From Escherichia coli (GTDB lineage Bacteria > Pseudomonadota > Gammaproteobacteria > Enterobacterales > Enterobacteriaceae): a DNA stretch of 26,147 nt. Below the pieces are notes generated by a model. It was given only the letters and a program-made list of their open reading frames with translations. It did no database searches and was not told the DNA's origin. Positions 19,813 through 20,245 of the stretch are shown here, one piece after another. Both the position numbers and the translations under genes were made by a program. Where the stretch lies: the NCBI RefSeq assembly GCF_003334355.1, contig NZ_QOWP01000043.1; one strand, written 5' to 3'. The number at the start of each line of letters is the position of its first letter. Within the stretch, counting starts at the first letter, position 1.

Positions 19813-19953
19813 TCAACGTTTTTTCTTACGACCCTGAACGGCCTTAAAACGTGGATTAGATTTACAAATCACATATAGCCGTCCTTTTCGCTTCACAATC
19901 TGACAGTCTGGATGGCGTTCTTTTGCGGTACGCAGAGAGTTAAGAACTTTCAT
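19813..19953 (-). CDS. rpmJ2: Ribosomal protein L36 paralog RpmJ2 (YkgO), 46 aa
   Basis: Not in the ORF track (under 60 aa). My translation of the minus strand gives [46 protein letters not shown] then TGA. Its ATG overlaps the rpmE2 stop by one base (TGATG at 19955..19951). Confidence 0.85.
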
Positions 19954-20219
19954 CACGCCCCCTTTTTCGTGCTAACAAAACGACCAAAACGTTGGGTGAA
20001 TCGTGCAACATTTCCTTCTGATGCCACTGTTCTCAGCTTCCCTGTATAGAACGGGTGCGATTTAGAAGAGACATCAATTGTCACGTATGGATACGTTACG
20101 CCATCCAGCTCAATCTCACGGTCTGTTTTGATAGTCGAGCCGATTTTAAAGTACTCATCAACACTGGTGTCGTGGAACACCACAGTACGATACTCAGGAT
20201 GGATATTGGGCTTCATCAT
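19953..20219 (-). CDS. rpmE2: Ribosomal protein L31 type B paralog RpmE2 (YkgM)
   Basis: [66 protein letters not shown]... recognised as the non-zinc L31 paralog. Tandem ATG ATG, so the true start may be 20216; AGGT Shine-Dalgarno upstream. Confidence 0.9.
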
Positions 20220-20227
20220 TTTTACCT

Positions 20228-20245
20228 GTTATGTTATAACATAAC
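20228..20245. promoter_or_regulatory. Zur box-like palindrome immediately upstream of rpmE2-rpmJ2
   Basis: Perfect 18-bp palindrome GTTATGTTATAACATAAC seen directly, abutting the rpmE2 Shine-Dalgarno. The ykgM-ykgO operon is the classic Zur-repressed locus in E. coli. Confidence 0.75.

Follow-up and report, generated by a model that had tools for sequence, protein, structure and literature searches.

The minus strand of the window, as we call the whole 26,147-nucleotide stretch of Escherichia coli DNA that was analysed, almost certainly carries the ykgM-ykgO operon, a zinc-sparing switch of ribosomal paralogues under the control of Zur. An earlier note on this DNA, made from the letters alone, had expected such a switch from a pair of rpmE2 and rpmJ2 genes next to a palindrome, and had called it known biology. 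The identity of the two genes, the fit of the palindrome to a Zur matrix and published repression now bear out the first statement, and the second is right as well, the E. coli ykgM-ykgO operon having already been described. As such, a textbook metalloregulatory switch was recoverable from a sequence scan, including a gene for a protein of 46 aa that a length-filtered ORF track had dropped. What the present analysis adds is comparative detail rather than a new finding, namely an order of -10 hexamer, Zur box and Shine-Dalgarno sequence that is conserved across Enterobacterales, a variable junction between the L31B and L36B genes, and support for the second of two ATG codons as the start of ykgM.

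Identity and layout of the operon

A region of 1.1 kb comprising the two genes matches many complete E. coli genomes with 100% identity and was found in 5,086 of the 5,426 complete genomes searched, where it is annotated as ykgL, ykgO, ykgM and ykgR. Over 1101 bp, the window and K-12 MG1655 disagree at one base only, 20452, which is outside the operon, the operator and the promoter, and the comparison with the K-12 ykgM-ykgO promoter that had been proposed as a check gave identity across all three. YkgM scored 122.9 bits against the NCBIfam model of type B L31 (NF002462, cut-off 86) and YkgO 91 bits against that of type B L36 (NF002021, cut-off 70), and the best PDB matches of the two proteins are, respectively, bL31B ('L31 type B') and 'L36 2', both in ribosome structure 6i7v. 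YkgM contains zero cysteines and lacks the CxxC...CxxC zinc motif, with residues other than cysteine aligned to C16, C18, C37 and C40 of RpmE. In YkgO, H14, C17, C30 and F36 align with the RpmJ ligands C11, C14, C27 and H33, which leaves an incomplete zinc site of H, C, C and F instead of C, C, C and H; a 3-residue insertion and a basic tail further distinguish YkgO from RpmJ.

All elements of the locus, as read from the sequence, lie on the minus strand. The RefSeq annotation places ykgM (rpmE2), encoding a type B, cysteine-free L31 of 87 aa, at 19953..20216, and ykgO (rpmJ2), encoding a type B L36 of 46 aa, at 19813..19953. The remark in the earlier note that rpmJ2 is missing from the ORF track applies to the first-stage track only, the gene being annotated in RefSeq and known as b4506 in K-12. 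In the mechanical ORF list, ykgO has 47 aa, its frame being run up to a GTG at 19956, and ykgM has 88 aa, its frame being run up to the first of two tandem in-frame ATG codons that begin at 20219 and 20216 (the upstream ATG occupying 20217-20219). The 87-codon frame of ykgM ends ...AAA AAG GGG GCG TGA, and in the resulting TGATG the ykgM stop (19955-19953) and the ykgO ATG (19953-19951) have base 19953 in common, in agreement with the one-base stop/start overlap that had been claimed for the pair. A Shine-Dalgarno-like AGGGGG of ykgO (19958..19963, minus strand) lies inside the last ykgM codons, 4 nt before the ykgO ATG.

Upstream of ykgM, the order from 5' to 3' on the minus strand is TTGAAA, 17 nt, TATCTT, TATG, the palindrome, AGGT, AAAA and ATG ATG. 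The first of these elements is a predicted sigma-70 -35 hexamer of the ykgM promoter (20273..20278, minus strand) and the second, after a 17-nt spacer, a predicted -10 hexamer (20250..20255, minus strand); both are consensus predictions of modest quality, with 9/12 matches. The predicted -10 is upstream of the palindrome and separated from it by 4 nt. The palindrome itself, GTTATGTTATAACATAAC, was found base for base as reported before, with the addition of its strand, which the earlier note had not given: read on the minus strand, it is a perfect 18-bp palindrome of 9+9 at 20228..20245, and it forms the core of a 20-bp Zur box at 20227..20246. The ykgM Shine-Dalgarno sequence AGGT (20224..20227, minus strand), 7 nt before the annotated ATG, follows directly on its 3' side, so that the operator indeed abuts the ribosome-binding site.

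At the other end of the operon, approximately 50 nt past ykgO, a terminator-like hairpin (19726..19764, minus strand) has a 16-bp stem and a 7-nt loop, with UUUUCC after it. Folding of the 101-nt stretch gave -29.7 kcal/mol (z = -3.76), a value that 0 of 200 shuffles equalled. A simple terminator scan after ykgO made no call; Aseev et al. draw a terminator after this gene (PMC7297116), and the hairpin at 19726-19764 is probably the terminator of the operon. It is situated inside the 3' end, in the last codons, of the convergent gene ykgL (19551-19778, plus strand). The latter gene is intact in the window and is, by annotation, a frameshifted pseudogene in GF43, MS8345 and O145 RM12367-C1.

Several features in other parts of the window were recorded as well. 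Bases 1-4678 are not collinear with ATCC 8739, and the break at about 4679 corresponds in that strain to the very end of the thrW gene for tRNA-Thr; a complete tRNA gene was not found in the window. This segment, with genes for a PerC-family regulator and a pRiA4b ORF-3 family protein besides hypothetical genes, is found undivided in just 32 of the 5,426 E. coli genomes; it resembles the terminal part of a genomic island at thrW, the site that carries the CP4-6 prophage in K-12. Between yagU and ykgJ, 11050-11249 (plus strand) is a full-length match to Rfam IS009 (RF02111; 202 bits, gathering score 117). The gene of the fimbrial usher ecpC (14246-16771, minus strand) has an intact frame of 841 aa and is annotated as frameshifted in ATCC 8739, and the 77 bases at the end of the window (26071-26147), which follow closely on fdeC (ending at 26053), show no alignment with ATCC 8739.

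The palindrome as a Zur box

The palindrome is the longest perfect one in 26 kb, the runner-up having 12 bp, and its sequence does not recur in the window even when 3 mismatches are tolerated, nor was it matched in 100 shuffles. Two motifs for the Zur box, one skeletal (RNNNYRNNRYNNYRNNNY) and one specific (TGWNAYRWTATAWYRTNWCA), were deduced by Gilston et al. (2014) from the crystal structure of Zur on DNA (PMC4219657). The 18-mer agrees exactly with the skeletal motif, in a dimer-of-dimers arrangement and with TATA as the central four bases; this motif is weak alone, having 96 matches on one strand of the window. The 20-mer at 20227-20246 agrees with the specific pattern at 19 of 20 positions and is the sole site in the window within 2 mismatches of it. 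In addition, the window was scanned with a Zur matrix, as the earlier note had suggested, which we built from three K-12 operators only, those of znuA/C, zinT and pliG, leaving ykgM out against circularity. On this matrix the ykgM site scored 25.06 bits, compared with 27-29 bits for the training sites and 6.7 bits for the next independent site in the window, and in 200 simulated 26-kb sequences the maximum was 18.1 bits, with 0 of 200 reaching 25.

That the palindrome is the operator of another regulator such as Fur, an AT-rich palindrome due to chance, or the terminator of ykgR, is hardly credible in view of these scores and of the following points. Fur-family boxes are all AT-rich inverted repeats, and ykgR does lie upstream of the palindrome on the same strand. 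However, a Fur box at this place was rejected, as the best 19-mer starting in 20201-20270 has at most 12 of 19 positions of the Fur consensus, a poorer fit than at random places in the window, and the central TATA is a mark of Zur that, according to Gilston et al., distinguishes Zur boxes from Fur boxes (PMC4219657). Chance was rejected likewise, with approximately 0.1 palindromes of at least 18 bp expected in the window and with a location that matches exactly the slot of the boxes in the orthologues, and a ykgR terminator is at odds with the weak hairpin at the palindrome and with the lack of a T-run after it.

The assignment to Zur is also consistent with the conservation of the box and of its position. 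Within E. coli we distinguished four promoter alleles, 91-99% identical over 81 bp, in which the substitutions only flank the box, falling in the stretch that separates it from the -10 or in the one from the Shine-Dalgarno sequence to the ATG; the palindrome, the G and AGG next to it, and the -35 do not vary among these four divergent alleles. The promoter fragment 20205-20285 had 5,063 matches, 12 of them on records typed as plasmids, and no match in about 370 of 5,426 E. coli genomes. In E. coli strain 110, an IS66-family element (tnpA) is found approximately 260 bp upstream of ykgM, in the usual place of ykgR, and has left the ykgM promoter and Zur box untouched.

For the comparison across species, loci were collected with an N-terminal protein pattern, MKP-IHP-YR, that is unbiased as to the upstream DNA and returned 120 loci. 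All 21 Enterobacterales orthologues have the same order of TTGnnn (its similar position being judged by eye), a -10-like hexamer, the Zur box, a few bases, GAGG and ATG. The box scored 17-31 bits in 20 of the 21 and only 8.3 bits in Pluralibacter. From the end of the box to the ATG there are 12-16 nt in 20 of the 21 orthologues and 23 nt in Xenorhabdus; with 10 nt, E. coli has the most compact arrangement, in which the box touches the Shine-Dalgarno sequence. Of 89 genes for cysteine-free L31, 30 had a box of 15 bits or more in the 150 nt upstream, compared with 0 of 14 genes for cysteine-containing L31, where the maximum was 4.6 bits, and 103 shuffled upstream regions gave at most 12.9 bits. 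Outside Gammaproteobacteria, genes for cysteine-free L31 score low on the E. coli matrix because the Zur boxes there differ, and the actinobacterial genes among those collected fall below zero.

The same alignments bear on the start codon of ykgM. Strain GF43 has ATA ATG instead of ATG ATG, as well as AGGCG instead of AGGTA just upstream, with the YkgM protein unchanged, and all orthologues start with MKP. The replacement of the upstream ATG in GF43 supports the ATG at 20216 as the conserved start, and thus favours the RefSeq start on comparative grounds.

Transcription start, leader and gene junction

Zur binding, zinc dependence and incorporation into the ribosome are known from literature on the identical sequence. 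Zur binds the K-12 ykgM operator cooperatively as a dimer of dimers, with the tightest affinity in its regulon (Kd-app 0.025e-18 M2 by EMSA), and represses ykgM mRNA 560-fold (PMC4219657), and the output of ykgM-lacZ increases approximately 1000-fold when zur is disrupted (zur::kan) or when zinc is chelated by TPEN (PMC7297116). The zinc-dependent regulation that the earlier note had anticipated is therefore reported for the same K-12 sequence (PMC4219657, PMC7297116). Moreover, L31p has been reported to repress the expression of L31 (PMC9825181).

Together with the layout described above, these data suggest the following model. When zinc is sufficient, two Zn-loaded Zur dimers occupy the 20-bp box, which has the 18-bp palindrome at its centre and lies between the predicted -10 hexamer and the Shine-Dalgarno sequence, across the predicted transcription start, and bound Zur would stop RNA polymerase from initiating and keep the operon silent. 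Upon exhaustion of zinc, Zur comes off the DNA, allowing synthesis of a bicistronic mRNA with a short leader of approximately 25-30 nt before the start codon. From this mRNA come cysteine-free L31B and the L36B paralogue, which take the place of the ribosomal L31 and L36 that bind zinc; L31B represses rpmE as well. With a start codon that shares one base with the ykgM stop, and with an AGGGGG of its own, ykgO would have its synthesis tied to ykgM.

The predicted -10 ends 4 bases before the palindrome, and transcription should therefore begin near the upstream edge of the palindrome, at about 20242-20246. The papers that were searched for a mapped E. coli ykgM transcription start gave none, and hence we infer the position of the operator relative to +1 from this spacing. 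The Zur footprint reported for this operator, roughly 30 bp in size, would then extend from the end of the -10 over the start site to the Shine-Dalgarno sequence, and in Y. pestis footprinting and primer extension put the Zur site over the -10 of ykgM-rpmJ2 (PMC2706843). Thus, we infer that the operator represses by blocking transcription initiation, with promoter occlusion as the probable mode in E. coli. The description of the palindrome in the earlier note as being at the ribosome-binding site is correct with respect to position but not to mechanism, since the box acts on transcription; the operator would adjoin the ribosome-binding site because the leader is only approximately 25-30 nt long, and not because of an action on translation.

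The palindrome could, in principle, have a role in the RNA as well. If it were also transcribed, a hairpin in the 5' leader next to the Shine-Dalgarno sequence might tune mRNA stability or translation in addition to repression by Zur, a reading that we regard as unlikely. With a start at G20246 or G20245, the whole palindrome would be contained in the mRNA and, directly before AGGU, would fold into a stem of 7 bp closed by a loop of 4 nt, whereas a start at A20242 would remove the 5' arm of the hairpin. The predicted fold is weak (centroid -5.8 kcal/mol), 54 of 200 shuffles fold as well, and with z = -0.59 a post-transcriptional role of the palindrome is without statistical support. A search of the ykgM-ykgO locus for Rfam families found none. 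The position of the box just upstream of the Shine-Dalgarno sequence in all 21 orthologues might point to selection of its placement for such a second role, with a 5'-terminal hairpin stabilising the short leader or setting the translation rate. We give this idea very little weight, as promoter occlusion would also account for the conserved position, and the two-fold symmetry of Zur binding fully accounts for the palindrome.

With regard to the junction, the one-base overlap noted before is real in E. coli but is not a conserved feature of the switch. Gaps of 1-3 nt separate the two genes in Citrobacter, Enterobacter, Lelliottia and Superficieibacter, and gaps of 12-20 nt in Photorhabdus, Yersinia, Rahnella and Serratia; Rosenbergiella has a 4-nt overlap (ATGA), and some Vibrio junctions read TAATG. 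What is conserved is tight linkage, ranging from a 4-nt overlap to a 24-nt gap, such that every detected L36B gene starts at most 24 nt from the L31B stop; this detector found no adjacent L36B in most Pseudomonas loci, for which either its filter or the biology may account. From these comparisons, the one-base overlap appears to be specific to E. coli, with only the tight linkage conserved, and translational coupling of ykgO to ykgM seems plausible. Nevertheless, there is a sizeable chance, which we would put somewhat below even, that the overlap is incidental and that ykgO initiates mainly at its own Shine-Dalgarno sequence rather than by termination-reinitiation coupling: the AGGGGG is a good one and stands 4 nt before the ykgO ATG, and an overlap that varies into a gap of 24 nt is itself not conserved. 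The constant proximity of L36B to the L31B stop among the detected genes fits co-translation instead, and Rasmussen et al. caution that, the genes being adjacent, a ykgO knockout may alter ykgM expression (PMC9825181). Folding revealed no structure around the ykgM/ykgO junction (z = +0.65).

Relation to known zinc-responsive systems

The closest known system is the ykgM-ykgO operon of K-12 MG1655 (b0296-b4506) with its Zur operator PL31p, to which the coding sequences, the junction, the Shine-Dalgarno sequence, the operator and the predicted promoter are identical. There is no difference in the operon, but the strain background differs, as the window has the island segment at 1-4678. Among E. 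coli operators, those of znuA/znuCB, zinT and pliG share with ykgM the 20-bp dimer-of-dimers box and its central TATA, but only the ykgM box, alone of the four, is a perfect palindrome over the central 18 bp. The ykgM and zinT operators have been shown to have an affinity for Zur that exceeds that of znuC or pliG by two orders of magnitude or more (PMC4219657).

In Y. pestis, ykgM-rpmJ2 is likewise a Zur-repressed L31B-L36B pair, with the box over the -10/start region (Li et al. 2009, PMC2706843). The orthologue of Yersinia artesiana has a box of 30.6 bits that ends 12 nt before the ATG, compared with 10 in E. coli, and in Yersinia the two genes are 15 nt apart, whereas they overlap in E. coli. 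At a greater distance, Bacillus subtilis ytiA (rpmEB) and the actinobacterial C- paralogues follow the same principle, as cited in PMC7297116 and PMC2706843, in that a Zur-repressed, cysteine-free L31 replaces the zinc-binding form when zinc is scarce; their Zur-box consensus and operon partners, however, differ from those of E. coli.
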